A DNA stretch of 62,741 bases, counting the filler, from Stramenopiles sp. TOSAG23-2 (taxonomy: Eukaryota): assembly GCA_900128395.1 (NCBI GenBank). It is 8 parts of 8 records of this genome, joined end to end, with 100 filler letters (N's around TTAATTAATTAA, not from the genome) between each part and the next. Parts side by side here need not be neighbours in the genome. Positions count along the whole stretch, not along the records: positions 26,574 to 52,895 come from LT649436.1; 7 more parts are not named here. One strand, written 5' to 3'. The number at the start of each line of letters is the position of its first letter. Within the stretch, counting starts at the first letter, position 1. The position numbers and the translations under genes were made by a program. The notes below the pieces were generated by a model, which had not been told where the DNA came from, made no database searches, and worked only from the letters and a program-made list of their open reading frames with translations. This document shows positions 26,474-62,118 of the stretch, in pieces.

Positions 26474-26573
26474 NNNNNNNNNNNNNNNNNNNNNNNNNNN
26501 NNNNNNNNNNNNNNNNNTTAATTAATTAANNNNNNNNNNNNNNNNNNNNNNNNNNNNNNNNNNNNNNNNNNNN
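26474..26573. other. Artificial contig spacer (44 N + TTAATTAATTAA + 44 N); the same linker lies at 52940, 54583, 56225, 57867, 59507 and 61147
   Basis: Identical 12-mer with stop codons in all six frames, embedded in N runs. Confidence 0.97.
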
Positions 26574-36193: not shown

Positions 36194-38515
36194 TTAAAAT
36201 TTGCCTTCTTTCCTACTTGAACCTCTTGAATCAGCTATTCGTTCCTCTTCTTCATGTTCCTTCGCTTTTTTCTCAGCAATTGCATCTTCATTAATTTCAA
36301 CTTCGGCAAATAATTCCTTAAACCTTGGTTCCTCCTCACTTCGATTATGACTTGTTAAGAATTTTTGTCGATAATACAAAACGGTATCAATATGTTTCTT
36401 ATGACTTTCAGCTATTTGTAATGCGCGCTTCCATCTGAATAAACGTATATTCATTTTAATCGCACGGTAAATTAATGGGGGATTTGCTTGTAGCAAAATT
36501 CGTTCGGCTTCATCTGGTCGCCTTTGATATAATGCAATCTCTGCATTTTGACCTTCCTCTAATGGAATATCTTTGATATATAATATGTAATGCAATTTAT
36601 CAACCTCTTTCATGGCAGCAAGTGCTATTTCCGCTGTGTCCAAGTGCAAACTCCCAATTGCACCACCAGCCAATGCGGCCCAAAGCGGATCACTTTTCAC
36701 AAAACGACATAAACGCACTGCTTCTTCCCATTGTCTTTTTTTCACAAATTTATCCAATTCAATTGGGTATGGAGAAACGCTTGCTGTCATTAACGCACCA
36801 TCGGCACGTCTTACTTTCAAATGCGAGCCGAAAAACGATATGATATTGGAATGTTTGCCAAATAAAACACCTTCTTGCTCATCCTTGGATCGATTCAAAA
36901 GGGTTTGATCCACTTGGACTACGTGTGGATTGTACCATGTGATTAATTTACCATCAGCAATTGCTACTAGTAAATCACTACCATCGTTCCATGCCATCGT
37001 ATCTACCATGGTTGCTAATTTAAATGGTGTTTTCACATCATCTCCTATATCTGTCATGTACAAATCTCTGTTTTTATCAATAAACGCTAATAGCGGTTTG
37101 TTGCGATTGTTTGTTGCTTTGGAAACAGCAATTTCAGCAATTTCTAATGCGTGCGTGCATGTCGATAAACTATTCCCATTTTGCGATGTTGCGCTAAAAC
37201 AGCGAATACTCCTTGAATCACTTAAATCCAATATACCAACAACTTCATCAGTAATACTTAATACTTTTGGATTTAAAAACTCCGTTCGTAAACCTGGAAA
37301 GGTTACATTGCAAAGTAAACGGCCTTCGAAGGAATATAATTTCACACCTGGATGTACATTATCCACTAATGCAAAATGTGAATGAGATAATATAATCAAT
37401 TTTACTGGATTTCGCAGATCAATTTGAGTCAATGGTGTATTAAAATTGCTAGTGTTGTAAACAGCACATTGCAATGCTGTTGCTGCTACTAAGTGATCAT
37501 AACCTAATTCCCATTGGATAATTCTATCACGTAATTCCACTTGATCAACTTGTTCATTTGCAATGTCTAATACACGAATAGTATCACTTTCCGTTTGCAC
37601 GGCACTAAAACGCGGATCCTCGCTAGACCTTTCCACAACTTGTGCAAATACAACTGCACCATTGCCGCCTGCACATGCCAATTGCGTCCCATCTCTTGTC
37701 CATGCTTGCTGCATGATAGATCCACTTTCTGGGCGTTCACGGCAATAACTCCATCCAGTTTTATCACATAAACGTAATAAATTATATGAACCAACGCTGA
37801 AAAAATCACCACTTGGACACCATGCTACACTTGTAACCACATAATCAAAAGGACGACTTTGAAACAATTGCCTGCCATATGTATCCCATACTTTGTAACG
37901 TCTGTCTTCACCGCCAGTTACTACTAAATTTGTGACTGGATTCCAATCCGCTTTCATGACTATGCCATCATGCGCCGTCCATTGTACTTGTTTACGGTCA
38001 ACATTAATAGATTTAATAATACAATTAGAACCACTACCGAAAAGTAATTGGTTGCTATCTGGACCCCATGCTAAAGTATAAATGGCAGCACCTTGCTGCG
38101 AGAAGTTATTTCGCAACATCCCTGATCTAGACCATATTTTGACACTACCATCTTCGCCACCAGATGCTAAAGAATTCCCATCAAAACTCCATTTCAAGCA
38201 AATAACGGCACCACCTGAAGCTTCTTTAATTTTTTTCTGTTCATTACCACTTTTTGATAATAAACGTATAGTCCCATCCGAGCAAGAAACGGCAAACATA
38301 TCAGAAGTTTGTTGTCCAGCACTTGGAAACCAACTCATGTCGGTAACAAATGCATCTAAATCGCATACTTTACCTAAATGTTCACCTTGCAAATTCCATT
38401 TCATAATAACTTTATCATCGCCACAAGTATATAATTCATTGGATGGTGTCCAACAAGTAGCAGTTACCATTTGCTTATGGACATTAACTGGTTGTTGTGT
38501 CGTTTTAAATTTCAT
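36194..38515 (-). CDS. IFT80: Intraflagellar transport protein 80
   Basis: GGEDGSVKIWSRSGMLR, GGEDRRYKVWDTYGRQLF, LRLCDKTGWS, WEEAVRLCRFVK and HIDTVLYYRQKFL. Confidence 0.96.
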   Translation of the reverse strand: MKFKTTQQPVNVHKQMVTATCWTPSNELYTCGDDKVIMKWNLQGEHLGKVCDLDAFVTDMSWFPSAGQQTSDMFAVSCSDGTIRLLSKSGNEQKKIKEASGGAVICLKWSFDGNSLASGGEDGSVKIWSRSGMLRNNFSQQGAAIYTLAWGPDSNQLLFGSGSNCIIKSINVDRKQVQWTAHDGIVMKADWNPVTNLVVTGGEDRRYKVWDTYGRQLFQSRPFDYVVTSVAWCPSGDFFSVGSYNLLRLCDKTGWSYCRERPESGSIMQQAWTRDGTQLACAGGNGAVVFAQVVERSSEDPRFSAVQTESDTIRVLDIANEQVDQVELRDRIIQWELGYDHLVAATALQCAVYNTSNFNTPLTQIDLRNPVKLIILSHSHFALVDNVHPGVKLYSFEGRLLCNVTFPGLRTEFLNPKVLSITDEVVGILDLSDSRSIRCFSATSQNGNSLSTCTHALEIAEIAVSKATNNRNKPLLAFIDKNRDLYMTDIGDDVKTPFKLATMVDTMAWNDGSDLLVAIADGKLITWYNPHVVQVDQTLLNRSKDEQEGVLFGKHSNIISFFGSHLKVRRADGALMTASVSPYPIELDKFVKKRQWEEAVRLCRFVKSDPLWAALAGGAIGSLHLDTAEIALAAMKEVDKLHYILYIKDIPLEEGQNAEIALYQRRPDEAERILLQANPPLIYRAIKMNIRLFRWKRALQIAESHKKHIDTVLYYRQKFLTSHNRSEEEPRFKELFAEVEINEDAIAEKKAKEHEEEERIADSRGSSRKEGKF

Positions 38516-40116
38516 CTTTATGTATATAATATTATAATTCAAATGATATATATATATATTAAATATATATTATCTTGTTTTGATAATATATTTTTTCTCT
38601 TTTGGAAAATACAAATGAAGAAAAAGGATGATAAGTTTGGTTATATTGCTCAAACGTAGCTAACAGAAAGACACAGATATCGTATAACATATACTTTTAT
38701 ACATATATAGTCACTGTTATTATTATATTAGTAGAAGAATTCATCAAGTGAATGATGTGTGAAATCTAAAATTCGTCGCTATATAATATGAACACACCAT
38801 TGCAAGCCAAGGCAGCATTTCAAAAATCACAACAAAAAAATAATAAAAAATACAAAAAAATTTAAAAAAAAATTATTTGAAAAACTTGAATTGTGCAATT
38901 GGTACAGTAATTGGTATCCCGTGCTCCCTATCATCATCCTTTACAGGAAAAGTTGACTGAGGATAGCATATAAATAATATTAAGTACTATATATATGCTA
39001 AATAGGTATACATAAATCACACAAATCGATTAAAACACCTTAAATATATCATACTTCTTCAGACTAAGAGACGATACAGAGCTACCTACATTAACATGGT
39101 ATAAAAAAAAAAAAGTTGTTGTTGTTGGACACAGAAAGAAAAAAAAAGGTTTATTTTTTTATAGCTTTATACATTTGTCTTTATCTGTGCGTGCTGTTGT
39201 AAAAACATATTACAAGATATAATTATGGCAATCACTGCATCGACTAGGTATTTACAATATGTCACTTTTCACAGTGCATTTCGTCTATTTGCATATATAG
39301 TAAACAGGGAACGAGTTACGAGAGTTAAATTTTCTGATGTGGCTGTAAGTATTCAAAAATTTAAATTTGAATCATTAAACCCGAAAGGTAGAAATTCTCT
39401 CTCTAACACAACATATACTCTTGCATATATATATATATATATTACTGTCCATAGTGGGAAAATCCTATCACAAGACAAGCTGCTTATGCATATACTGGAG
39501 TGATACGAAGTTTATTTATATTTAGGGTCTGTATTTATTTTTGGGGTTCATATTTAGAAAATAAAAAAGATAGGGATAGACTGTCTATCATTTCATTTCT
39601 ATTTGATAGCCAAATGATGTATGGTATCTTGTCGAAATCATTTTTACAAGGTGGTGTTGATATTGTCAAAAGTACACAAACACGTGCATTGGTTCATAGT
39701 CAAGGTTGGGTGCCATTGTCCATGCAAGCATCTCGGATTCTAGCTGCTTTTATTGCTTTTTTGTATGAAATGTATTATTGAGTAATGCATCAACGAAAGG
39801 GGGTATATTAATACTACTATATGAGAGTTACCACCAGGTGGTAGTAGTGGAGATAATACTATTTATATACTACCAACTATAATATCCTATATATATATAA
39901 TTCTTGTAAACTTTATTTTTATTATGGATATTTGAATAAATATATATATATATAAATACACACACACTGGCGGCACACACATACAGATGAGAACAAATAT
40001 ATACATATATATATAGAAGTATACACATCAGATTCTATATTGAAACCATCTATTATTATTATTAATAATAATACCTCTCTGTCTCTCTCTCTCTCTCTCA
40101 CACACACATATATAAA

Positions 40117-44833: not shown

Positions 44834-47713
44834 CTACACTCTCTCCCTCCAAAACTCTTTCCCCCTACACAGTACCGAACCATTTATCTTTATCTGCATG
44901 GATATAATAATTTCTTGCTCCCCATCATCCTTTTTTCTACTGTAACTTTTGCCTGCTGAACTTGGTACAACGCATTGAGCATGTATAATTTTCATTGATT
45001 CTGGAATTTTAACTTGCATATTTATTGTTTCATTTTCTTTTCCAGATAAAATCAATATTAAATCAGTGGAATTACTTATCAATTTCATTATACGAGAATT
45101 AGATACTGGTATAAATTTATTTGCTTCTCCTAATAAAATCCAATTACCATTTAAAATTGGGGCGATTAAAACATATGTTGCTTCCGTTCCTAATGGTTCT
45201 TTCCAATTTGCTGATAATATAGATAGCGAATCTTTATCGTCATTAAATGGTAGAAGAGACATTTCATTAGTTTGCTGAAATGGCCGATCACCAGACCAAA
45301 AATATGCCACATAGTTACCATGATGATTCTTCAGTTCATATTTGTTTGTACTATTGGTGGATGATGTCGTTCGTAGGATACCAACATCGTTTGGAGATAA
45401 TTTAAATTCAGTATTATTAATTATGCTTACATACCGCCATACGTAATCATTGTTTATTACAGTCATTGCAACGGATGTTTCGCCAACTGATGTGTCTCCA
45501 AGCCAAACACGATCTATATACATAGCCGGAATAGATGGTTTTAATAATTTACCATTTTCATTACAACTCATCATAAGAAGTACACGATCGGCATCACCTA
45601 TTGGCCCACCCGGAGCAAAACCACCTCCACTTAATGCAGATACCAATGCTTGTGTAAATGGTAAAGACTCGTATCCACCATAATCCTCCGCAAATGAATT
45701 TTTGACACGTGAGGATGAGTTGGAATAAAATGTATCTTTAAATGGCCACAATCCTAGAGACCAAAGGAGTGTACTTTCACCACCAAAGCCTTTCCAATTA
45801 TCAAATGGAAATCCATGTGAATTGTGACGTAAATGGCTATCCGTAGAGCCACGTCCATGCGTCATGGCTATATGATTGACAGAATGCATCAATACATTTG
45901 GAAAAGACATGCATAACATAATACTCACATTATTTTTATAAGCAGATGTACCAAGGCCATCTAGATATTGCTCGGCTACATTTACATCGGTCACCATATC
46001 AAGTATACTATTTTTTGCAATTGAGCGATTACGTTCACCTGGTTTACATTCTGTTCCACCACAATTTGGAACGCTTGCATCACCTCCTAATACTACATCT
46101 AGGACATGATCCATTTTCAAAACAGACATACTCCATTCATTATTGGATTGAAATATATGGTCAAAAGCAGGATTTGTTTCACTATTATTATTATTATTAT
46201 TTAGACCAATGAGCACCAAATTCTATTCCCAATTTTTTTTGAAAGGTTTTTAATGTCTCTGGAAATATTAAGCCAACTTGTTTTGGAATATCTTCAAAAT
46301 ACAATGAATATGGTTCATTGTCCCCATGATTATTATATGCATGCCACCATGAATCAATTAAAAACCAATTGTATGGTATTTTTTTTTCTATTGCATCTTG
46401 GTGAATGAGATACAAATTATCTTGATATGTATGACAATCATTGTCTTTTCCAGATGATGGTGGACAACCCCATCCAATAGAATTATTAACGCAGTCACAT
46501 GGATTGTAATGATAAATTCCGGTAGTGGAATATCCTAACTTTGAAATCCAAACATTTGAATTAGGCAATGTCCGCTGATTTTTACCATAACTTTTTTGAA
46601 TCAATATATCTCCCCATTGTGAGAAACTCTGAGCAATTCTACCTATATGTTGATTGGTAATTTCTATATTTTCCAATATTTGTTTTGTTTTTTTTAACGA
46701 TGTTGTACTTAGAACAAATTCAATTGTATAATTGCGTGGAATATTTTCAATTAATCCACCTACCCCAAATCCTAATAGATTAACTTGATTATTATCTTTA
46801 ATAATATTAGACATTCCAACCATGTGATGCGTTAACGTGGACATGATGATTACATTATCAATTTTGTTATTATTACTACTATTCTCATCTTCTTTGCCGA
46901 AAAGAGCTACAGGCCCACCAAGATACCCTCCTTTATATGCATCTGGCCATTTGCCATATAGCGTTGATTTTGCTGCATTTTGCCCTAAAAATGTTGCAAC
47001 ATGTACATGATTATTATTAACATTAGTAGTAGTAGTAGTACTTGTCTCTATCACACGAAAAGATGGAAAAATTGTTGATGGAATATCAATATCTCTTTGG
47101 TCATTAATATAAGTATCATGTGTAAGTCCGTATGGAAAATATTGCTCGAATGTTATAAACACATTTGGTAATAGTTTCTGGTTGTTGTAACATTGAAATG
47201 ATGTTATCCATACGTTATTTTTGTTTGTACCCCATGTCCAGTAAAGGGATATTTTTTTATGATAATCAAATATTTCAATATTATTATTATTTTTATTTAT
47301 TATTGTTGTAACATTTTGCAAGTTTAACTTGTATTTTCCATTATTTGTGTTATCATACCATATGTTGTTGTGTAATATGCGATATGAACTACTGTACAAC
47401 ATATTCAAATTTGATGTAGGGTTCAAATATATTGTATAATTACCAAGTTGATCATCTATAATAATTTTTTGTGCTGATGGTGTTATTGAATCATTTATTT
47501 TATTATTATTGAAGTTACAAATAATATCTTTTGAATGTACATTACATATTGTTATTATAAATGTAATTATTAGAAACGTCCATGTATATTGTTGTTTCTT
47601 TCATTTATTTTATTATTATTGAAGTTACAAATAATATCTTTTGAATGTACATTACATATTGTTATTATAAATGTAATTATTAGAAACGTCCATGTATATT
47701 GTTGTTTCTGCAT
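44834..47713 (-). CDS. Secreted glycoside-hydrolase-like protein (clan GH-D-like TIM barrel, inferred), disrupted twice
   Basis: Signal peptide MQKQQYTWTFLIITFIITICNVHS from ATG 47713; WFLIDSWW, IMLCMSFP, LWSLGLWPFKDTFYS, LSGGGFAPG, GKLLKPS and WILLGEANKFIPVS. A 110-bp duplication (47491-47709) and a frameshift at the (AAT)n tract near 46200 break the frame. Confidence 0.6.
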
Positions 47714-48335
47714 GTTTCAACGTTTCTTATTATTATCGTTTGTTTTAATTTTTTGATCTTGTTGGTTTTATGTAATATTTCTCTTTATTATTTGCCTCAC
47801 TTCTTTAAAAAATATACACGTCGTTGTTCTATATCTTTATTAGAATTAATTATATATTATTTTGAATGTGTACCAGGTAGTGCACCCTAGAGTATGTATT
47901 AATAATAATATTATAATAAAAAAAAAGAAATTAATACTGGCCATAGTTATAGTGCAAAGTTACTCTGGACACCAGAGATTTTCCTTGCCAGTACCCTGTA
48001 GGTCCTTGCCTTTCACACGGCACTTGGCATCAAAATTGAAATTAATTCAGGGGGGAGGGGGGGGTAAAAAATATTTCAGCAAAAAAAATCAAAAAAGTCT
48101 TCAAGATATTTCCTGGATTTTTTTCATGTCATACTTTGTTGTACTATTAATAATATTAATATGCAGTACTCAAGCGAATAATAGGATCGGATCCTCTCTA
48201 CCATAGTTGTTATATAGTGGGAATGTTTCTACACAAGATGCATTTTGTATTAGTCACTTCAAAATTTCATTTACACATTCACCAAAAAGAAAAAACAACT
48301 CGAGTAATAACAATATTTAAAGAGATATAAAAATC

Positions 48336-48749
48336 ATGAAAGCCTCCCTCACAGTCCTACTTTTAGTCGCTGCCACAGTTCTAATTGGTGTGCCGACTGC
48401 CTATGGTAATAATTGCCAGCGGTGCTTAGCGTACAATTATAATAATTACAACGCGTGTAGTTATTTCTGCAGAAGAAGATTGAGTGAAACAGACGAGGAC
48501 GTCGTGTCGCCTACCTCATCTCGACGACGACTTAATAATTGCCAGCGGTGCTTAGCGTACAATTATAATAATTACAACGCGTGTGGTTACTTCTGCAAAA
48601 GAAGATTGAGCGAATCAGACGAGGACGAAACGTTAGCGCTGGATGAGGACGAGATGGTGTTTACCAAATCCCGACGACTTAATTATCAATGCCAGCTATG
48701 CAAAGTGCGAAATCCTGGATATCATTCAGCGTGTAGTTGGGTCTGCTAA
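48336..48749 (+). CDS. Secreted multi-core precursor of three Cys4 peptides separated by RRL sites
   Basis: 24-aa signal peptide; cores NNCQRCLAYNYNNYNACSYFC, NNCQRCLAYNYNNYNACGYFC and NYQCQLCKVRNPGYHSACSWVC; spacers of the form (R/K)RRL-acidic-RRL. Confidence 0.85.
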   Translation: MKASLTVLLLVAATVLIGVPTAYGNNCQRCLAYNYNNYNACSYFCRRRLSETDEDVVSPTSSRRRLNNCQRCLAYNYNNYNACGYFCKRRLSESDEDETLALDEDEMVFTKSRRLNYQCQLCKVRNPGYHSACSWVC

Positions 48750-49034
48750 AGAAGAATGCTGAGAATGACCCAGTCTAACCTCTAAGAAGGAAGAAGAAAG
48801 GTTTTGGAGAGATAACACATACCCAGGCGAAACAGCACGATGAGAAAAACTGTGCATTACAAAAGATATTGTGTGCGTAATAATAACTCGTACGAGTATG
48901 CATAATCCATATTATCAATCTAGTGTATTCATCACACCAGATGTAAAATTAAATTATTATACGAAGTAAAATTTAATTTAAACGCATAATTTACGACTCC
49001 ATGTGTCTCCATTTTTATTTAAAACATGACGTTT

Positions 49035-49412
49035 TCAATAATATTCATTTAATAAATCATTGAAACTTTCTTTATTTCTTTCAATTCCAACTTTTACTTT
49101 CACTTTACCTCCATCTAAACTCCAAAGTTCATGCGATATACTTGATAAGAAGCTTTGATTATGACTAACTAATAAAACTGCACCTTGAAAATCGTTCAAT
49201 CCAATAGCTAATGCACGCAAACTATCCATATCTAAATGATTTGTCGGTTCATCTAATATTAATATATGTGGCTTTTTCCACATTACCACTGCTAATGCAA
49301 GTCTTGCTTTTTGTCCACCGCTTAATAACCGAACTGGTTGCAATGCTAAGTGTCCAGCAAGGCCAAAACTACCTAAATGTGATCTTGCTTCCATAAGTGA
49401 TATACCATTTCG
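49035..49412 (-). CDS. ABCF-family ATPase, C-terminal fragment (second NBD)
   Basis: ARSHLGSFGL..LSGGQKARLALA..PHILILDEPTNHLDMDS..GAVLLVSHN. Sequence upstream of ~49412 is unrelated. Confidence 0.85.
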   Translation of the reverse strand, partial: RNGISLMEARSHLGSFGLAGHLALQPVRLLSGGQKARLALAVVMWKKPHILILDEPTNHLDMDSLRALAIGLNDFQGAVLLVSHNQSFLSSISHELWSLDGGKVKVKVGIERNKESFNDLLNEYY

Positions 49413-49416
49413 CCCA

Positions 49417-49869
49417 ATGAAGATCTGTCCAATTGATTGCGACAAAAACCAAAACTGGGTCGTGTCTGTCGATTTCAATACTGCAGAAGATGAACTTGGA
49501 ACTCTTGTTTGTTCGAAAGGAACTGAAGAAGACGCAAAACGCGATGGGGAAAAGATTCCAAATGGGTACACCCGTACCATTATTGGGTCATTCAATACGG
49601 GTGATCACAACAGAATCGCATTGGGTGATCCGTGTGCCTTTTCCAACTCCGACAATTGGTATGACTCCGATTCTGCGTTGTACAAAATGAAACAATTCGA
49701 TGGTACTGACGGTGTTTATTTTTCAACAAATCATTGTGACGGAATGTATCCCGTCATTTGTTTGTATGAAAATCAAGCAGCACAAATGGCAAACAAGCCG
49801 AATTCATTTCGTGTAACCTTTACTCAGCCATGTCATAACGCATTGTGCGACGCGTTGGGGATGCCTTAA
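49417..49869 (+). CDS. Hypothetical protein (probably a 3' fragment)
   Basis: 150-codon ORF, GC-richer than its flanks; no family recognised. Confidence 0.4.
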   Translation: MKICPIDCDKNQNWVVSVDFNTAEDELGTLVCSKGTEEDAKRDGEKIPNGYTRTIIGSFNTGDHNRIALGDPCAFSNSDNWYDSDSALYKMKQFDGTDGVYFSTNHCDGMYPVICLYENQAAQMANKPNSFRVTFTQPCHNALCDALGMP

Positions 49870-50766: not shown

Positions 50767-50895
50767 CCCGATTTGGTTCATTTATAGTTCATTCATTCAA
50801 AATAAAAAGATAGAAGATAATGCAGATACATGACATCGAAACACAAAATCAAACAGATGATATATAGACAACAATAATCTATAAATAGAAGCGAC

Positions 50896-52895
50896 ATGGC
50901 ATTATCAATACAATGCAGTATTAGAATAATCAGTATTGCGATATACGTACTTACCATTCATACAGTTGCTACAGCGAAAGCTACTAAAAGTGTTTTTTAT
51001 AATGTTAGTCATATTATTTCAAATTTGTCATATAACGAGCAATCATTAATATATGCAATTCAAGGAATTGTGAATAAAAACAAAGAACCAGAATTGTTTC
51101 TAAATACTGGTCATATGGATTTAGATTTTCCAAAATCAGATTTATTGTGGAAAGAATATTTTGAGAAAACACGAAACATAGAATTTGATACTACCATCGA
51201 AACAAATAATTTATGCAGTTTAATTAATCATTTTCAAGACAAATTCAAAAATGGTATTGTTATTTATAATGAAAGTGATAATTTTACACTTTACCCATCG
51301 TTGACACTTGCAGGTTTAAATAGTGTATTGCCAATATCTGATGTAATATATGAAAAGTACTATGATTCATGTTTACGAAATTTTCCAATCCATTTAAATT
51401 TAACCAAAATGGAATTTTCAAATAAATTTGAAATGTATCGTTGGGCAATTGATACGTTATTACCTAATTGCAGCAAAACAATTTTATTTAATGCAGACAA
51501 TTATCCGAATGCAGTTGCACAAGCAAAATTTACAACAATTATGTCAGTTGATTATGCAATTTCACAAAGAGCATTTATAATGAATTTATGTCCATTATGG
51601 AAATGTCAACCAAAATTATGTGGAACAACTAGAAAGGCAACGCCAAAAGATACGGAACTTTTTATTGAAATTATAAAAGCATCTGATAAATTAGTTTCTG
51701 TGTTTGGTTGGAGTGATCCTGAATACAGTTATACGAACATTACATCCCATGCTGGAGGTGCTGTTTTTTGTTCATTTAGCACACCAAATTTATCATATTG
51801 GGATGCTATTTCTAAATATTTCAATAACATTACATCCCATGCTGGAGGTGCTGTTTTTTGTTCATTTAGCACACCAAATTTATCATATTGGGATGCTATT
51901 TCTAAATATTTCAATGTCAAACCATTACCATTACCAATAAAAGACAATGATCTTCAACATATGTTAGATGCATCTAAAACATATTTAATATTTGAAACAA
52001 ATGAAGGCGACACGCCAAGGATATTGTCTTCACAATTTACCAGTGCTTGGGTTTCACCAAATCGTGGCAGCGTTCCAATTGCATGGGCAATCGATCCATA
52101 CCTTGGTATATTATTTCCAGAGTTGTACAATTATTATGCAAATAATACTACAAGAAATGATACATTTATAAATGGTGTCGTAGGTGCTGGTTATGCATAT
52201 ATTAGTAGTTTAGGAGAGAATGCACAGGTTTATGAAAAACGGAGTGGGAAAATTATGCAAATGCTTGGTCCAAATGTTGTAGATGTAAGTAAATTTCGAT
52301 TCCTATACTATTAAAGACCTATATAGTATACAGCCCTGGATATATCCTCCCTCTCTAACAATACATCCCTCTCTTTCATTTAAATACGTTTACAGGTCGG
52401 TGTCCCAATGAATAAATGGCCCGCAACACCTATTGATTTAATAGAAGAATATGTTGTTCATGCTAGAAATACAGGAAATAACGATGATAAAACAACGATA
52501 ACGTCACCAGAGGCATTTGTGAATGCATGTGGCACTACATATGGACAAGATATTAATATTTGTTTAAATGATGGTACCCCTGTTATCAATTCAGTGTGTG
52601 TCGGTCCAAAAAATAATGATACAACCGATGGACATTATTTATATTATTATAGAGATCATTTAAATAAAACAGATCCTGTACATGATTTTGTCGAGAAAGT
52701 GAAATGGGCATCAAATCATTATAAATCAAAAGATCAAGCCTTGTTTTTATTGGCATATGGAGGTTTAGGATTATATGGAGGACATAATGATATATTCATA
52801 TTTATTCAAAATGTTATGAGGGAGCTTGGGGAGGATTATATTGTCATTGGTGCTCAAGAGATGGTGAGGTTAGCGAAGGAGCAATGTAAAAAAAA
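50896..52895 (+). CDS. Secreted GxGYxYP-family putative glycoside hydrolase; one intron; runs into the contig end
   Basis: Signal peptide, AIQGIVNK, NEGDTP, SPNRGSVPIAWAIDP and GVVGAGYAY. In-frame 90-bp duplication 51736-51825/51826-51915. Confidence 0.8.
52285..52395 (+). other. 111-bp spliceosomal intron (phase 0)
   Basis: GAT|GTAAGT donor, CTCTAAC branch, TTTACAG|GTC acceptor; joins in frame to the ORF at 52408. Confidence 0.85.
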
Positions 52896-52995
52896 NNNNN
52901 NNNNNNNNNNNNNNNNNNNNNNNNNNNNNNNNNNNNNNNTTAATTAATTAANNNNNNNNNNNNNNNNNNNNNNNNNNNNNNNNNNNNNNNNNNNN

Positions 52996-54425
52996 TATGT
53001 GCTATAATGGCTCATCAAGCTTTGGCAGATCATTTTTTTTTCATATCTTTATTTTGGTACATCTTCTCTGGAATTGGTACAAGGTCGGGAGAAGCAAGCT
53101 TAGTTGAAGTGTATCCATGGAAAGAAGAACGTTTGGAATTATTGCAATATCGTCCATGGATCGGAGGTGCATTTTTTACGTTTTATCTAATATGTAATGT
53201 AATGATTACATCAGTTAATGAACAGACAACTGATATTAATGGATCGATTGGGTTTCGAAATATTATTAGTATAATTTATCCTATAGTTTGCTGCTTCAGT
53301 TTTTTGAGCGTTATTGCAATGAAAGATGCAAAGCAAGTTTCTAGGAAAGATGAAAAAGCAGTAAATATTTTGGTAGAATACAAAGATATTTTAATTGGAC
53401 CATCTGCAAAATATGTACGCTGGATATGGGTACTGGCTATACCAGGCTCAATTTACGGTTCGTTTTTTATCAATTCAATCCTATATTTTATATTTTATGT
53501 CATTGGCATTCCACCAGAAGATATGGGTATTTTTGGGCTTGTATCGTACAGCACAGGATTGGTCGTGTCATGTATTATGACTCCATTCATGGGTTGCTTA
53601 TTTGCAAAGAAATCAAAGGACGGGCGTGAAAAATCGAGAAATCCATTAAATATTGCAATAGGATGTGGTATTTTCGATCAAATCCTTGCTCTTGGTTTAG
53701 CCGCTTTTTGGTTTCAACCAATCGATCGTAAAATTCTAAAAAATGGTGGAAAAGGAAAGTGGGAAATACTTTTCTTATGGGGATTCATTACTGGATTTTT
53801 TGGATTTCCTATGGAATACTGGCGGCGAGCTGCAACTACATGGGCAATTGATTTTGATAATCAAGCACGGGAAAAAACTGGGCATAAACGTCGTGAAGCA
53901 ATTATTTATGCAATGAGTAGCACTTTATATGGATTATGCGGGTTGATTGGTATTGCAATTGCGCAATCATTTGTTATTGGAGACGATCCATTGTGCAATA
54001 CGACATTATCAGCAGCGGAGATGCCAGATAAATGTACTTGGACATTGTATTATTGTTACATGTTTCCACCATGTGCTATCATGATCTGGACGGTCACATG
54101 GACGTGGTTTTTTCCACTCAAAGGGAAAAAATTGGAAGACCTTTACAAAACACAAGGTCATTATCAAAAAGCTGTTTCAGGTACAGATGCTTGGAATACT
54201 GTGGGCGGTGGAGCAGAATATCAGGCAAATAACAATGTGCAACTTGTTAGTGGAAGTGCTGTTACAGTTGTTACTGCTGCACCAAAATTTATTGATATTA
54301 CAATTCCTGAAGGTGCAGAGCCTGGAATGCAATTAGCACAAACATTATCAAATGGAAAAACAATTACCTTTACTATTCCAGCAGATAAAAAAGTTGGTGA
54401 TGTGATTCAAGTTCCATTGGAATAA
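52996..54425 (+). CDS. MFS transporter (GPH/MFS_2-like), 5'-partial
   Basis: Many TM helices; AIDFD..TGHKRREAIIYA resembles the GPH D..GxRREG motif; WFFPL after the last helix. Confidence 0.7.
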
Positions 54426-55143
54426 AAATTTGAGAAGATGTTATCAAAAAAAGTACAAATTTTATCGTATTTAATATGTGTGCGAGATGTATGCATATGA
54501 AAAAACTAATTTGAAGGGCTAATCAATGCAAATTAATTNNNNNNNNNNNNNNNNNNNNNNNNNNNNNNNNNNNNNNNNNNNNTTAATTAATTAANNNNNN
54601 NNNNNNNNNNNNNNNNNNNNNNNNNNNNNNNNNNNNNNACTCGTTGAACGCGCTGGACGTCGGGATCATTCGAAAACGGTGAGGTTGTCGAAGTGAAAGA
54701 TCCTGTTGTGAACAACAACCGGTAACTATCCGGATAAAGATCTTGAAGTGCACGGTTGTGGCAAAAAGCCGCGGTTTTGATCGCTTTAGCTTGTAGGTTT
54801 CTACAAGTTTCATCGACCCATTGTGCTTTGAGCCAGTTTAAAATAATTAATACGAGTCGTATTTATTATTTTAGATTCTTATGACTTTTAGACTATTATA
54901 GCATATATATATATATCAAATATTGTATATTCTCCCATGGTGGATTATTAGTGCATTACCTGGTAACATATCAGTAGCAGTATAGGTAATAGTGTAATGT
55001 TGTGTTCATCTACCTTTTTAATACGGAAGGCTGTGTCTATACTATTTCGTTTTAATAGCTCGAGATGTGAAAAATGTGTCGACTTGTTGTATCAAAGATA
55101 TATGATTAGCACATAACAAAATATTCCCTTTATCCGCAAAAGT

Positions 55144-55274
55144 TGTCATACTTTTTTAAAATTATTATAAGTATGAATTTTGGTATACTAAAATTCCTAT
55201 TTGACCTTCACATTGATAGGAATGTTAGTATACCAAACTTCATACTTATAATTACAAAAAAAAAGGAGGTGACA
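55144..55274. mobile_element. Hairpin/MITE-like element, copy 2
   Basis: 37-bp stem 55164-55200/55216-55252 with two mismatches and a 15-nt loop, extending imperfectly to TGTCA...TGACA ends. Confidence 0.65.
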
Positions 55275-55573
55275 AAAGACAAAAAAAACGAAAGTAAAAA
55301 AAGTGGGGAGATATTTATCTTTCAGCACCATATTGGATTTTGTGTTTGAGTGCTATTTCCATAGTAAATAAAGACTAAATATTAGTGCAACAGATAATAA
55401 CAATATGTATTATACTATGTTTTAAACATAAAATAAAATATATAGATACGTAGATATACATATACATTATACATACAGATATATAAATATATAGACAACT
55501 ACATATTCATATATATATTTCGATATAAATAATAATCATCAAACATTTAATAATAACAAGTAAAGAAAAAAAA

Positions 55574-55759
55574 ATGAAACTAGTAGTATTAGCATTATTA
55601 GCATTAATTGCAACAGCAAATGCAGCCAATATCAGAACTGGTGCTGAACCAGAAAAAGAAACAGCAGAAGCAAAAGAACACGATACAAAATATTCGCCAG
55701 ATCTTAATGCACATGAAATCGCAACCGAACCAAATTATTTTATGATGATGATATTGTAG
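55574..55759 (+). CDS. Small secreted protein or truncated N-terminus of one
   Basis: AAAAATG start context; signal peptide MKLVVLALLALIATANA followed by an acidic segment. Confidence 0.5.
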   Translation: MKLVVLALLALIATANAANIRTGAEPEKETAEAKEHDTKYSPDLNAHEIATEPNYFMMMIL

Positions 55760-56280
55760 ATGTAATATGATGTACATATGTATTAAAGAAGTACGTAATA
55801 TACAACTTGTATTTACTGTTCTATAATGGCACAATGTAAATTATATGAAGAACATGTATGCACGCTCAAATGTAAGAAATACAAACCAATTGTTGTAACT
55901 ACTTGTAACGTTTTTTTTAATAATTGCAATTGTTGTGATGTACCAAGACACCTCGTTCACATGGATATACTAAATACAGTACTGAAATAGTGTCTATATA
56001 CCCTATATACAGTTATAATGATATATGGTTCGATGATGCCATGCCGGGCATGCCCAGTCTGTGCATTAATTACTTACGGAAAATTTAGCACTACATAGCA
56101 CTAAAAACAAGATTTCAGGTGAAAATATTTTCCGTAAGTAAATGCATTATTTCTATACCTTGGTTTTTTAATTATGGAAGNNNNNNNNNNNNNNNNNNNN
56201 NNNNNNNNNNNNNNNNNNNNNNNNTTAATTAATTAANNNNNNNNNNNNNNNNNNNNNNNNNNNNNNNNNNNNNNNNNNNN

Positions 56281-57822
56281 ATAACATTGATGATATAATT
56301 TATTTTCCGAGGGTAATAAAAGCACCAATTATATCAAACAGGACTTTGAAAGTGCTCGTTCCAAATGGTGTTACGGAGAACATTCCTGTAAATTGCAACA
56401 AATCGCCACAAATTTGCGAAAAAAAAATGGTGAAAATACGTAGTTTGAAAGATTATGCGGAGTTAGGAACATATTCGTATGTTTTATGCATTAATGAAAA
56501 TATGGTGTGGCAAACACTTCTAGCTGGCGCAATTCCAGTTTTGGTAATGAAGGAAAGTAGATTTAATAAAAATGGCCTTGATTTACCAATTGTGCTCATT
56601 GAATTTATAGAAAATTTAAATCGCTTGGATATAAAGACGCTAAAGCAAATAAGAAAAAGTCTGATTCCATATTTCATTAATGTGGCTAAACGTCAAAAAA
56701 TAGTGGAGTATATGCTTGTGGATTACTGGTGGAATCAAATCCATAATACTATTCACCAAATTCATTCACGCCCATTGCAACATTATAGCGGAACTTCGCA
56801 TGTATACATTGACTTTAAAAACGAATTCGTTATCAAAATAGGTAAACGATTTAATGCATTCACTCCTATTAGCCGAGAAATTTGTATACTCAAGAAATTA
56901 CGAAATTACGATTGGTGTCCAAAGATAATTTCTTATGGCAGAAATTTTATTGTGACAAAGTGGGCCGGGGTTCCTTTAAGACAGTACAATATCCCAAAAG
57001 ATTTTGATTCACAAATCAGACGCATTTTACACGATTTAAAGGAAGCTGGTGTACAACATAATGACATTACCAAACGAAAGAATGAAATTGATATGTTAGT
57101 CAATGAAAAACGTCATTTAATGCTGGTCGACTTCGGTTGGGCCACAGTTTCATATAATTCNNNNNNNNNNNNNNNNNNNNNNNNNNNNNNNNNNNNNNNN
57201 NNNNNNNNNNNNNNCGATCATATTCTTGTAGTGATGTGGGAGTTGAGAGAGTTTCAAATTTTGCACCGTCGTGGTTTTTACCGACAGAAGATAGGCACGT
57301 GATTAGTGTTTTAAGAACACTCGCCAAGGGTGGTAGTATTTCCCGTTACATGGATCCACACAGAAACACCGGTTCCCAAAGCGAGATCCCACAATTACTG
57401 CTGTCATCTAACAGCTTGAGCGTTCGTGGTTACCAGAGATTTTCACTTACAACTGATGGAAGACTGGTCATTGAAAAGAAAAAAGAAAAGTTCCATATCA
57501 TTCTTCATGTTCTTAAATCGCTGCACGAGACGCATAAATGCAGCACATTTCTTGATATAGGTTGCAATGCAGGTTTAACATCATTTATTGCAAAGCGAAA
57601 TGGGTACAGCAAGCGTGTCATAGGTTTGGATCACGACTATGAATATGTAGAGATGTACAACCGGATAGTTGCTCGGGAAAATATGTTAAGAATTCGTGCG
57701 GAATTATTTTCATTTGGAGATCCGTTGCCGTTAAAGTACAGAAGTGACGTTGTCTTTGTCGGGGCTTTGATTCATTGGATTTATACATGCACGGCAAAAT
57801 TCAAAAACTTTGCGAATATATT
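56281..57822 (+). CDS. Partial multidomain ORF: exostosin-like C-terminal motif, small-molecule-kinase-like domain and class I methyltransferase
   Basis: YSYVLC..WQTLLAGAIPV; VIK..REICILKKL..HNDI..LVDFGWA; FLDIGCNAG..GLDHD..VGALIHW. An N gap at 57161-57213 separates the kinase and methyltransferase frames. Confidence 0.6.
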
Positions 57823-58196
57823 NNNNNNNNNNNNNNNNNNNNNNNNNNNNNNNNNNNNNNNNNNNNTTAATTAATTAANNNNNNNNNNNNNNNNNNNNNN
57901 NNNNNNNNNNNNNNNNNNNNNNCACCACTGTTAAGAAAGAAACTATAAAGAATGTTAATGTCGTATAGATTGTAAGAAATGCTTGCACATCTTCTATATA
58001 CAGCATGTCGTCTTCAATTCTATCATCTATCTATATCTTTCTATAATCGAAAAATTATTAATTTTTTCTTCATGCTGAAAACCAATCATCAAGATAGGAA
58101 TAGCATTAGGAAAAAAAGATATTGGTTTTGGTTTTTTCGCTCATCCTTTCTTTTTTAGACTATAATATTATATCTTTGCACAATTCTATATTATAG

Positions 58197-58405
58197 CAGG
58201 CAAACCGATCAATGGCAAAGTTGCTGTTTTTGAGGTTTGTTCAAAAGATGTAGATTCCAAAATAAAGGTAGGAATGTATTTGAATAAAATAAATCATATA
58301 CAAGTTCCATATATGATATATGAGCATCAATATAAAGAAGTGATAGATCAACTCAAGAAATTTAGAACGAAGGGTAATTTAGTTATTACCTTTGATTTAC
58401 CCTAA
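58197..58405 (+). CDS. Terminal exon encoding a PDZ-like fragment
   Basis: After TTATAG the frame reads GKPINGKVAVFEVCSKDVDSKIKVGMYLNKINH..YKEVIDQLKK..LVITFDLP*. Confidence 0.4.
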
Positions 58406-58620
58406 AAGACGGGGGAGAGTTAAAAAATGCGGCAAAATGATGTACGAATCGTACTACGAAATGTATTTTTTATAAAATTTTTTTAGAGAGAGAGTGTTTT
58501 TTTCTTTTTAAATTCCATTCGTACAGTTTTAAATTCGAATATTATTATTTTTTAAATTATAACATGTTACACACACTTTCATGTGGTGTTTTAAATAAAT
58601 CTCTCTCTCTTTTCTGACGG

Positions 58621-58895
58621 TCATATTTTTACAACGCAAGTGCAACTGTTTATCGATTTTGCAGTCGAATCACATTTTAAATTATAAATATCACCCGAGA
58701 CAGTCACTCTGTAATTGGCATGATGCCCATGCCCTGTTTTTGTGCACCCATGACCATAAAACCCATCGCTACACATGCATGTGCCACCGTTATGGCAATA
58801 TGCTGCATCATTATCTCCCCCTTCGTACATTTGTTTTTGTGGTGGTCCATCTGAATCATTTTCATCCACACCATTATAACGACAGTCTTCATGCG
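58621..58895 (-). CDS. EGF-like motif-containing fragment
   Basis: YCHNGGTCMCSDGFYGHGC; no clear start codon. Confidence 0.4.
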
Positions 58896-59365
58896 TACGC
58901 TGTCCTTACCAACTGTTAAAGGATAAAGTGAGAGGCTTGGTTAGAACACTTTGGGATTGATTGGATGAAATCACAAGAAAATAACATATCAGTTTCTGAT
59001 ACTACAAACAATACTAATGGAAATTCAAACAATACACAGCCAACATACCAGCTGTATGATAAACAACAACAAATATATACATATATACAGTAGGTACAAT
59101 TAGGAAAACAAATACCACGGGAGAGATGTGGTCAATTTTCATGGTGTTCCAATTAGGGTTATATCTCAGCTCAGGATGATGACGCATCCATCTCAAAAAA
59201 TATATACACACCACACAAAATACACAAATACAAAAATGTATCTATCATTGTGACAAATCATAACAGCACATATCAATTATCAATATTATATAACAACAAT
59301 ATTTACAAAGCTTAACAACAACAACAGTAGCCGTCCTATATTTTTAAACAAATTATTTTTTAACT

Positions 59366-59462
59366 ATGTCAAAACCAAGTACACTTGCATCTATTGGTCT
59401 AGGTGGCAGTGCAGCTGTCATAACATGTAATTTTACACATCCAATAGAATTAGTTAAAGTTA
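59366..59462 (+). CDS. Mitochondrial carrier family protein, 5' fragment
   Basis: MSKPSTLASIGLGGSAAVITCNFTHPIELVKV contains the Px[DE]xx[KR] signature; cut by the contig end. Confidence 0.8.
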
Positions 59463-60715
59463 NNNNNNNNNNNNNNNNNNNNNNNNNNNNNNNNNNNNNN
59501 NNNNNNTTAATTAATTAANNNNNNNNNNNNNNNNNNNNNNNNNNNNNNNNNNNNNNNNNNNNAATGTGTATGGTATATACCACCCTGGTAGATACAAATT
59601 GTTTTTTTTTTGTTTTTTCTTACCAAGGATATATAAATACGATGGGAATACAATGGCGATCGGAACCTTCTGAGCGTATTCATCAAAGGTTTCTGGATAT
59701 GGGTGAATTTTTAATAAATTTCTGGCTGATTTTTATTAATTCTGGTCAAAAACTCAGGCGGTAAAATCATTTATCTCTATTCCTGAAATATCAATTTACA
59801 TATTTATCAACATAAAAATATCCATAAAAAAGGTGCAAAATATTTTTTTTTCAAAAAAGGAGCAATTAACTAGGAAGCTATGCTAAGTAGTATACGCAAA
59901 ATGTATGAAATATATTATTTCATGAAAAAAATAACACTAATCATAATGGAGGAAGGTTCCCAATTTGATCAGAGTATCTCCAGCTCTCATCTCATGATGT
60001 TGCTCATCATCATCAATTTATTTATTATTATTACTACTCATAAATACATACATGTATGTTATTTTAAATTCAATATAATAATATAAATAATAATTTATAA
60101 TTCTTCGATCAGAGTATTTTAGAGGCGAAGAGGCCTATACACTCTGTACATATATATATACATATATGGATATGATCTTCCAGCAGATAATAAATGTCGA
60201 TCGATCAATGGTATGGAGATGGTAATAAAAATGGCTTTCATCATTGATTTCATTGTTGGTCTTTTTGGTTGCTTTTCTCCTCTCGTCTCACGAAATGTTG
60301 GCCTTTCTTCATGCTATATGTATATATTCTAATTGGTCAAAAATCGACGTAAAACCTTAAAATTACCGTACTTCACAGAAATGTTGTATGATTTTTACCT
60401 ATTTATCTAATTTAGTATGATAAGTATAAATAAAATCTGATATTATATTTATATATTAATCTGTGGCATATATTATCCTCTGCACCTCTCTCAATTTTTC
60501 TTATAGGATTATTAATTATTAATTATGGTCGTCAAAAATCTAGCGAAAAGAGAAACCAATATATATGTGTATGAATTACGAATTACGAATCGTAATACCC
60601 ACCCGGTGCTCCCGTGCTATGATTATATTATTGATTTTAGGTGATAAGCCCACACTTACACACACACTTATCAGGATAGTATTTAATTAATTATTAAAAT
60701 TCTCATTTTCTTGTT

Positions 60716-60943
60716 TTATACGATAACATCCAAAAGGTATCTGCATGTGTTTGTTTCATGATACCGCAATATGCCACGCCTTTTCAATTCTTTTCTTTGC
60801 AATGCTCCATGATCTTTCATTAATTTGATAATATCCCATTTAAGCTCACTTTTATTCTTATAAATTGCGTTATCTAAAGGTGTTTTCCCAGCATTATCAG
60901 TTGCATTAATGACCTTTTTGTCCTTCAGATTTTTTAAAGTTAT
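60716..60943 (-). pseudogene. Ankyrin-repeat C-terminal fragment
   Basis: Reads VINATDNAGKTPLDNAIYK..DIIKLMKDHGA; no upstream repeats or start codon identified. Confidence 0.55.
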
Positions 60944-61667
60944 GCTCGCTGGGCTCGCGCAGAGTGGTCAAGTGCAGGTCCAATATTTAAGGTTTTATTT
61001 TGTACGCAGACGACTATCAGGGTGGGTGGGATCTGGATCTTAGCACCTTCCTATAGGGGTGCAAAAACCTGGTCCATCGTATTCACCTGCTATAGTGGAA
61101 AANNNNNNNNNNNNNNNNNNNNNNNNNNNNNNNNNNNNNNNNNNNNTTAATTAATTAANNNNNNNNNNNNNNNNNNNNNNNNNNNNNNNNNNNNNNNNNN
61201 NNTGTTTCAAAAAAAAAAAAATAGAATATTTTTTGTTTCTTCTTGTTTTTTGTATTACTAATATATATATATATGTTAATTGAATGCTTTAATCTTTCCC
61301 TTTGATAATATAAAAATGATCAATATCATCCAAATTCTTATTTATATATATATATATATATTTATGATTCTCGTTTCTATTACCAATAAAAGATAGTTCC
61401 CATCCTATCTTAATTAAGGACAATGTTAAATGTCACTATTTTATAATATACGGTGGTAATAATACGTATATAGTAATTATTCTTAATTTATAAACTAGAT
61501 ATAAATATAATATCCTTAAACTATACATTTAACATTGTCATATCATTGTAATTGTGGAGAATGAGATCAAAAAAATTCCTCAATCAATTTTATATTTCCC
61601 TATCAAAAACCAGGTAAGTTATACGTGAAAGGGGAATTAGAATACTAGAATTACAGATCCATAGAAG

Positions 61668-62118
61668 TAAATAGCAGGTAAATAGCATTATAACATGGGA
61701 ATAGCATTATATACGAAAAACTACATATAAGGTGTTTTTATGCGAAGATTCGATATTTTGAGTATATACACGAATGGTCTGGTAACCTTAATCCAATAGA
61801 GTTAGAGTCAATAGTGTGTATTGTTATTTTAAAATAGCATGTAAATAGCACTATAATATAGGAATAGCATAATATACGAAAAACTACATATAAGGTGTTT
61901 TTATGCGAAGATTCGATATTTTGAGTATATACACGAATGGTCTGGTAACCTTAATCCAATAGAGTTAGAGTCAATAGTGTGTATTGTTATTTTAAAATAG
62001 CATGTAAATAGCACTATAATATAGGAATAGCATAATATACGAAAAACTACATATAAGGTGTTTTTATGCGAAGATTCGATATTTTGAGTATATACACGAA
62101 TGGTCAGGTAACCTTAAT
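61668..62118. repeat. 163-bp tandem repeat, ~2.75 copies
   Basis: GGAATAGCA..TACGAAAAACTAC recurs at 61698, 61861 and 62024; the outer ends are slightly diverged. Confidence 0.9.

Follow-up and report, generated by a model that had tools for sequence, protein, structure and literature searches.

A putative secreted precursor of four-cysteine cores separated by RRL junctions in a stramenopile-like marine protist

R-x-L motifs recur as documented or proposed processing sites in stramenopile secretory proteins (papers are cited throughout by PMC number). The mature silaffins of diatoms lack the C-terminal RRIL or RRNL of their precursor's repeat units, and RXL, which stands at the repeat ends of frustulins, cingulins, and silacidins, has been put forward as the general mark of a dedicated endopeptidase in diatoms (PMC4557024). 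Sin1 has an RXL domain with RRL at its end, and the protease was not yet identified as of 2017 (PMC5525289). In oomycetes, the RXLR effectors of Phytophthora are cut between the Leu and the next Arg prior to secretion (PMC11754927). Modular precursors are known elsewhere: α-hairpinins are made as a signal peptide and a cassette of 2–12 modules freed by proteolysis, with the motif CX3C-X4-20-CX3C (PMC11591084), and naegleriapore B is a protist precedent for a multi-peptide antimicrobial precursor (PMC11542183; the tandem-copy design is also treated in PMC5850478). The locus analyzed here is an open reading frame (ORF) at 48336-48749 (+) of a stretch of 62,741 nucleotides, filler included, from Stramenopiles sp. 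TOSAG23-2 (assembly GCA_900128395.1); this whole stretch is called the window. A preliminary description, made from the sequence, presented the ORF as a multi-core secreted precursor of disulfide peptides delimited by RRL sites and invoked RXL processing and α-hairpinins as precedents, both of which hold (PMC4557024, PMC11754927, PMC11591084). With moderate confidence, we take its product to be a secretory prepropeptide that is cut after the Leu of RRL and trimmed of xRRL, thereby releasing two-disulfide peptides.

The ORF runs from ATG to TAA without intron, encodes 137 residues, and has a G+C content of 44.7%, against 31% in its 500-bp flanks. Its translation follows exactly the order of elements first described, all on the plus strand. 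A predicted signal peptide (residues 1-24, MKASLTVLLLVAATVLIGVPTAYG, 48336..48407), with a putative cut after AYG, is followed by core 1 (residues 25-45, NNCQRCLAYNYNNYNACSYFC, 48408..48470), by an RRRL junction that adjoins the fourth Cys of this core (residues 46-49, 48471..48482), and by acidic spacer 1 (residues 50-62, SETDEDVVSPTSS, 48483..48521). A second RRRL junction (residues 63-66, 48522..48533) adjoins the start of core 2 (residues 67-87, NNCQRCLAYNYNNYNACGYFC, 48534..48596), which differs from core 1 at only one of 21 residues (S42 to G). Between core 2 and acidic spacer 2 (residues 92-112, SESDEDETLALDEDEMVFTKS, 48609..48671) lies a KRRL junction (residues 88-91, 48597..48608), and an RRL junction (residues 113-115, 48672..48680) adjoins the start of the divergent core 3 (residues 116-137, NYQCQLCKVRNPGYHSACSWVC, 48681..48746), whose fourth Cys is directly followed by the stop. 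The spacing C-x2-C-x10-C-x3-C is found in all three cores. A six-frame search of the window for C-x2-C-x6-12-C-x3-C gives five matches, three being these cores and two being Cys/Phe-rich low-complexity strings in other frames, and tblastn finds no second copy of the gene within the window. The spacers are rich in Ser, Asp, and Glu, and the cores are not of low complexity. A codon-by-codon comparison of the core 1 and core 2 units shows that codons 1-17 are identical and that codons 18-33 hold two synonymous (TAT/TAC, AGT/AGC) and five nonsynonymous differences. Hence, as had been claimed, the units are diverged and not exact artefactual copies. The N-terminus has Kyte-Doolittle means (nine-residue windows) of 2.4–3.0 over residues 3-11 and small residues at the −1 (G24) and −3 (A22) positions.

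RRL occurs four times in these 137 residues. The remaining window ORFs of at least 150 residues, 13,935 residues in total, have it twice, so that 0.02 occurrences would be expected here. The four junctions read RRRL-S, RRRL-N, KRRL-S, and RRL-N, and none has an Arg after the Leu.

Few proteins resemble this one. A word-indexed search of 5.8 billion clusters finds only three close relatives: P0001 (99%), P0002 (with two cores), and P0003 (79%). When 1.84 billion representatives are searched exhaustively with a HMMER profile, seven matches reach E ≤ 0.001, namely two of the close relatives, three genuine distant relatives (P0006-P0008), and two rejected candidates. The latter, P0004 (1745 residues, 25 matched stretches) and P0005 (400 residues, five stretches), are tandem-repeat proteins without signal peptide, RRL junctions, or Cys framework, each matching one short stretch of the profile, and are judged spurious, their scores being inflated by repetition. 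A second word search with a widened profile adds P0009-P0017, which brings the total to 15 true relatives. Among metagenome contigs, one of 202 pattern matches is confirmed (L001, a public contig of 2,075 bp carrying the intronless ORF of one relative), and none of 30 pattern matches in viral contigs is. In Pfam-A the window protein remains below the gathering threshold (best match DUF6472, at 18.6 bits where 27 are required, E 0.0022), and no domain is found in the relatives: P0009 and P0011 have no match and P0007 has only Ntox16, at E 0.092. The family profile matches PDB sequences at noise level (best E 2.1, RNF168), the ESM Atlas gives no usable match, and the literature searched, with subscription journals and supplements outside its scope, holds nothing relevant to an earlier description. 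The preliminary description's expectation of a probably undescribed family is borne out in Pfam, PDB sequences, and the ESM Atlas. This is a previously unnamed, small, lineage-restricted family with R-x-L-type junctions, here in a marine stramenopile-like flagellate of free-living habit, multi-core precursors of cysteine peptides being already known.

The window protein and its 15 relatives form two subfamilies with one shared architecture: signal peptide, core, xRRL, acidic spacer, RRL, cysteine cargo, stop. The RRL-delimited design first seen in the window protein recurs in a second subfamily about 30–35% identical to it. This subfamily 2 comprises 12 proteins (29–35% identical to the window protein by individual comparison), in which a similar signal peptide is followed by NPCTWCRVSHSSGYCAPLC with NRRL directly attached, then by an acidic spacer, which is long and internally repetitive, by VVRRL-RAPRRL, and by a Cys-rich cargo that ends at or beside the stop. 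Behind a nearly identical leader, first core, and spacer, the cargo varies: it is a four-Cys core in five proteins, a 106-residue 12-Cys triple module in three, another Cys-rich module in one, and absent or truncated in three. The 106-residue cargo (P0011, P0013, and P0016) consists of three tandem four-Cys modules of the form C-x10-C-x9-C-x7-C, which no RRL separates. It matches no Pfam entry and represents another cysteine-rich module that has no name. In the spacers of P0010, P0011, and P0017 a repeat of about 30 residues (EEAGGFSAEAGYEKDGYNAKIKWEQDQ...) occurs once or twice, so that spacer length steps by whole repeats between otherwise near-identical proteins. Across both subfamilies the four Cys columns are invariant. 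Between the window protein and P0003, the signal peptide has 23/24 identical residues, the spacers (12/13 and 18/21) are better conserved than cores 1 and 2, and core 3 is identical. Core 1 of P0003 is reshaped, with a loop of 8 residues versus 10 in the window protein, and its middle core is replaced by a core-3-like module (15/22 residues identical to core 3). P0002 may be a real shorter allele or a transcript-assembly collapse over the identical first 51 nucleotides of cores 1 and 2, and is not counted as evidence for copy-number variation.

The position of RRL is systematic in this family. It is present at all four junctions of the window protein and at all junctions of the relatives, and in the 16 family proteins (the window protein, P0001-P0003, and P0006-P0017) every RRL lies at a module boundary. 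In the same proteins xRRL directly follows every internal four-Cys core, and terminal four-Cys cores end at or beside the stop. The junction Leu is invariant in both subfamilies, whose overall identity is 29–35%, while the residues around the junctions vary (C/S/N/P/V before, S/N/V/R/F after). Cores that follow RRL begin with NN-C, NYQ-C, or SFA-C, 2–6 residues ahead of the first Cys, and core 1 begins in a similar manner after the predicted signal-peptide cut (AYG|NN-C, and ASA|NP-C in subfamily 2). The RRL site is thus placed like the signal-peptidase site relative to the cores, which argues that the cut comes after the Leu and not ahead of it.

The stretch is present in RNA libraries. A word-index search of public runs with a 901-base stretch lists 24 runs, 20 of which hold part or more of it and 13 at least half of the sampled words. 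Two small DNA runs among the 20 are flagged as possible source and not counted as support; the other 18 are labeled marine, seawater, or aquatic metagenomes. Eight of the 24 are RNA runs with the stretch; they come from four marine metatranscriptome studies, several of the runs being poly-A or oligo-dT primed. Contigs of three RNA runs (three studies, two poly-A or oligo-dT primed) and of one DNA run were placed on 47600-49700. The RNA contigs span 48276-48935 (X10), 48277-48892 (X13), and 48252-48818 (X14), and the covered span, 48252..48935, is likely an mRNA of about 680 nucleotides, assigned to the plus strand from the ORF because contigs cannot show strand. No intron is seen, as no joints are reported in the contigs of the three runs. 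RNA contigs of two studies start within one nucleotide of each other with no loose end listed there, and the contigs of DNA run X3 (48157-48539, and 48557-48949 onward) extend past both RNA-contig ends; near-coincident starts with the DNA continuing are a weak hint of a transcript end. The length agrees with the 634–784-bp contigs that carry the three nearest database proteins. Within the ORF the RNA contigs show three synonymous and three nonsynonymous natural variants, of which Y35H and S94T reproduce P0001. The regions 48026-48238 and 48949-49160 have no RNA-contig cover, which is not counted as evidence of silence, and depth values were not used for ranking expression. The contigs from three studies speak for the real gene that had been supposed.

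The source organism is, as a leaning, an uncultured marine flagellated stramenopile-like protist. The window has about 31% G+C and is gene-dense, and its long ORFs read in the standard code. It contains a complete, single-exon IFT80 gene at 36197-38569 (−), from which it follows that the organism builds a flagellum. The best named relatives of this IFT80 are 48–50% identical and are mostly oomycetes and ochrophytes, with some green algae, and unnamed environmental proteins are found at 53–55%, 84%, and 99% identity. In a quick maximum-likelihood tree of 34 rows picked from 120 listed (the window protein, 10 unnamed, and 23 named), the IFT80 of the window and five environmental rows lie inside a clade with all 11 named stramenopiles, with a Shimodaira-Hasegawa-like approximate likelihood-ratio support of 100, and green plants, animals, and Physarum lie outside it. 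This grouping agrees with the protist origin first suggested.

If the protein is a prepropeptide cut after the Leu of RRL, its maturation could proceed as follows. Signal peptidase would cut after AYG24 and expose core 1 with the N-terminus NN-C. An R-x-L endoprotease of the endoplasmic reticulum or Golgi would cut after the Leu at each of the four junctions, so that cores 2 and 3 would start two or three residues ahead of their first Cys, like core 1. The C-terminal xRRL tetrapeptide would be trimmed from cores 1 and 2, just as RRIL and RRNL are missing from mature silaffins, and all three peptides would then end at the fourth Cys, core 3 doing so by its stop codon. The products would be three peptides of 21–22 residues, each with two disulfides (the likeliest pairing being C1-C4 and C2-C3) in a helix-turn-helix hairpin. 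Two acidic spacer peptides would also be released, probably pro-regions balancing the basic junctions.

The same precursor and products could arise with a different protease. A subtilisin of the Kex2/furin type would cut after RR and before the Leu, a carboxypeptidase would then trim the basic residues, and an aminopeptidase may remove the leading Leu. The Kex2 pathway of yeast α-factor maturation is a familiar case. Since every RRL contains the dibasic RR, such a cut is compatible with the sequence: RR or KRR is present in all four junctions, dibasic sites between repeated copies are what this processing calls for, and trimming of C-terminal basic residues alone would end cores 1 and 2 at the fourth Cys. 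Tandem-copy polyproteins of signaling peptides are moreover widespread (PMC5850478). Yet a dibasic protease needs no Leu, and the Leu after RR is invariant at every junction of both subfamilies; its constancy amid varying neighbors is not what a purely dibasic protease would demand. A cut before the Leu would also put an additional Leu at the N-terminus of cores 2 and 3, where core 1 has none, and the organism falls with the stramenopiles, a group with documented R-x-L cutting. Processing of the Kex2 type is thus unlikely, if the most serious of the alternatives.

The predicted fold bears on whether the protein is cut at all. In the AlphaFold model of the whole precursor each core forms a helix-loop-helix, and both spacers are disordered, with a predicted local distance difference test (pLDDT) value below 50, i.e., low confidence. 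A model of a 30-residue unit (the eight upstream residues and core 3) reaches a mean pLDDT of 77, with a long helix at 4-18, a turn at NPGY, and a short helix at 23-26. A disulfide-stapled helical hairpin is plausible for the cores, its helix-turn-helix fold having only moderate support from AlphaFold. No known structure stands out: Foldseek finds nothing better than E 6.6 for the unit model in the PDB, and VIA-align places none of 48,161 chains at Z ≥ 5 (best Z 3.2), the disulfide hairpin of p8MTCP1 scoring Z 3.0 (root-mean-square deviation 1.4 over 28 residues), not above background.

One could imagine a secreted modular protein of the extracellular space or cell surface that remains uncut, made of three disulfide-stapled hairpins on flexible acidic linkers, with RRL as a binding or sorting motif. 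The cleavage is a prediction from sequence, a single helix spans the RRL site in the unit model, and the three modules in the 106-residue, 12-Cys cargo of subfamily 2 have no RRL between them, so that not all modules of the family are separated by this motif. On the other hand, RRL stands strictly at every core boundary, terminal cores stop exactly at the fourth Cys, the signal-peptide cut and RRL share their position relative to the cores, and no structural protein family is matched. The linkers are also predicted to be disordered and exposed, which is where oomycete effectors are cut (PMC11754927). An uncut protein is accordingly quite improbable.

The acidic spacers rather than the cores might be the products, as silacidin-like phosphopeptides for the handling of minerals or polyamines, the Cys cores being accessory. 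Silacidins are indeed Asp/Glu/Ser-rich peptides from a repetitive precursor with RXL at its repeat ends (PMC4557024), and the spacers surpass cores 1 and 2 in conservation between the window protein and P0003. However, there are only two spacers, short and dissimilar to each other, and the feature conserved across both subfamilies is the cysteine framework. A Pfam scan of 14 ORFs of the window (four around the gene and 10 of the 39 listed with at least 150 residues) reveals no silica-related gene, and a conserved pro-region with a variable cargo is equally expected of a toxin-like family. This makes spacer products very unlikely. Finally, the assembly is of the single-cell type, and the ORF could be an artefact that arose in amplification or assembly, but this is scarcely credible. 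The window does have exact tandem duplications (two copies of 110 bp and two of 90 bp, at 100% identity), and two small DNA runs may be its source; an artefact is nevertheless contradicted by independent marine DNA and RNA runs of several studies with the same sequence and natural variants, by the RNA contigs, by near-identical and divergent homologues in public protein sets, and by the differences between the two similar units at 7 of the first 33 codons.

Several observations weigh against a cut and trimmed prepropeptide of the R-x-L type. Cleavage, trimming, disulfides, and secretion are all inferred and, as said, the dibasic RR at each of the four junctions suits a cut before the Leu as well. 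The signal peptide is predicted from hydropathy and the −3/−1 rule only, and three further candidate cut sites by this rule lie in the N-terminus. The model of the whole precursor has a mean pLDDT of 52 and a predicted template modeling score of 0.23; that of the unit was built on a five-row alignment of units, and its first helix runs through the RRL site. Counted without the xRRL tag, the cores have a net charge of only +1 to +2, and they are rich in Asn and Tyr, a combination atypical of classical cationic antimicrobial peptides. The RNA support consists of assembled contigs, which carry neither strand, level, nor true ends, and RNA libraries can contain DNA, so that the claim is kept to presence and a likely mRNA. 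The placement among stramenopiles is only a leaning because the IFT80 tree was made without alveolates, rhizarians, haptophytes, and cryptophytes. With these points considered, the interpretation of the preliminary description is largely right and partly supported.

The released peptides would work extracellularly or within a digestive or secretory compartment, as antibacterial, anti-competitor, or anti-grazer agents, or as a signal. That cores 1 and 2 are almost identical would be in keeping with a pheromone or signal driven by dosage, and the swapping of cargos in subfamily 2 with an antagonistic role. Families of venom and host-defense peptides have a constant leader and pro-region with differing cysteine-rich cargos. 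By analogy, a role in defense or feeding is slightly favored over signaling, because the near-invariant leader and pro-region of subfamily 2 carries several unrelated cysteine-rich cargos. A wider proposal, which we advance only tentatively and regard as doubtful, is that R-x-L cutting is an ancestral secretory system of stramenopiles, by which a heterotrophic marine flagellate here frees a hitherto unknown class of two-disulfide mini-peptides from cassette precursors, with a fixed leader and pro-region and a swapped and diversified cargo, for use against open-ocean bacteria, competitors, or grazers. If so, the family would be a protist counterpart of the superfamilies of venom and host-defense peptides, and R-x-L would not be a specialty of diatom biosilica or oomycete effectors. 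In any event, if the peptides are released, they would form a new disulfide-stabilized family from an abundant group of uncultured marine flagellates, about whose chemical interactions almost nothing is known. They are short enough for direct synthesis and assay. The precursor would then also be a simple, soluble substrate with four sites for the identification of the R-x-L protease, and could show whether the R-x-L cutting of diatoms, oomycetes, and heterotrophic stramenopiles shares one enzyme.

The surroundings of the gene contain other features. Just downstream and on the opposite strand, 49035-49580 (−) codes for an ABC ATPase, or rather its C-terminal portion (ABC_tran, E 1.2e-9), of which the conserved segments at 49225-49392 are matched by many contigs of other organisms; a functional link with the peptide gene is not evident. 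On the other side, 46200-47713 (−) encodes a protein rich in Asn that matches nothing in Pfam and whose first exon resembles a signal peptide, and further downstream 50878-52311 (+) encodes a putative glycoside hydrolase of the GxGYxYP family; the flanking genes at 46200-47402 and 50878-52311 are unrelated to each other (E 7). The exact two-copy tandem duplications lie at 47491-47709 (110 bp), in the 5′ part of the neighboring minus-strand gene, and at 51736-51915 (90 bp), and both are probably amplification or assembly artefacts. At 47955-48025 (core 47961-47998), about 38 nucleotides reach a depth of 229 in a marine DNA run, with neighbors at about 4. In contigs of RNA and of DNA alike the core has unrelated flanks and a loose end on each side, and it may represent a conserved fragment or a short element that is shared widely. 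The region holds a hairpin, CTCTGGACACCAGAG, followed by a T-run. It matches neither Rfam nor tRNA models, and the window has no complete second copy of it; Rfam and tRNA scans found nothing in the window as a whole. Runs of 44 N come in pairs, separated by 12 bases, and such a pair returns at intervals of about 1,641 bp (52896, 54539, 56181, 57823, 59463, and 61103), which suggests a masked element in a tandem repeat of about 1.64 kb, beyond the maximum period of the repeat finder. N runs lie within 52896-61202 and also at 26474-26573 and 57161-57214. A tandem repeat of 163 bp (2.8 copies, 97% matches) is found at 61669-62118.

Compared with known systems, the window protein resembles in its presumed processing the RXL precursors of diatoms (silaffin Sil1p, silacidins, cingulins, and Sin1). 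Like them it has a signal peptide and units ending in a basic R-x-L, and precursors of this kind also release the silacidins, acidic peptides of Ser, Asp, and Glu, likewise in a stramenopile (PMC4557024, PMC5525289). This is a likeness of presumed processing, without sequence homology. The diatom products are of low complexity, rich in Lys/Ser or in Ser/Asp/Glu, and tied to biosilica, whereas the units of the window protein are predicted four-cysteine folded cores with no link to mineralization.

The RXLR(-EER) effectors of oomycetes and the PEXEL proteins of apicomplexans also have R-x-L in a disordered region after the signal peptide, with a cut after the Leu and an acidic stretch next to it (PMC11754927 and PMC4740378). 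They differ in that the motif occurs once, for a host-targeted effector, while in the window protein it is repeated along the chain, presumably to free small peptides. The window protein is not an RXLR-dEER protein, to which it had been likened, as it has no Arg after the Leu, no EER, and no effector domain (e.g., WY) in Pfam. The PEXEL consensus is RxLxE/Q/D; this form fits two of the four window junctions (RRLSE twice) and not RRLNN or RRLNY, and the sequence after core 1 in subfamily 2 is RRLVQ.

The α-hairpinins are short four-Cys, two-disulfide, helix-loop-helix peptides, as the window cores are predicted to be, and they share with the window protein a signal peptide followed by a modular cassette (PMC11591084). 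The likeness drawn at first stands for this modular design, which the window protein has, and fails for the cysteine motif: the first pair is CX2C in all three window cores and not CX3C, so that the protein is not an α-hairpinin. The cores of the relatives also start with CxxC, CxxxC being found only in P0013. In addition, α-hairpinins are of plant lineage, some are linked to vicilins, and they have neither RRL junctions nor sequence similarity with this family.

Tandem-copy prepropeptides such as yeast α-factor and naegleriapore B yield several similar small products from one secreted precursor by endoproteolysis, as the window protein would. Their products are unrelated to the window cores, naegleriapore B having a saposin fold of about 80 residues with three disulfides and α-factor having no Cys, and their junction chemistry differs from that of the window family with its invariant Leu. 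Conotoxin superfamilies, from an animal lineage, combine a conserved signal and pro-region with hypervariable cysteine-rich mature peptides, usually one per precursor. The likeness with these is one of design, as in subfamily 2 at least three unrelated cargos occur behind a single leader.

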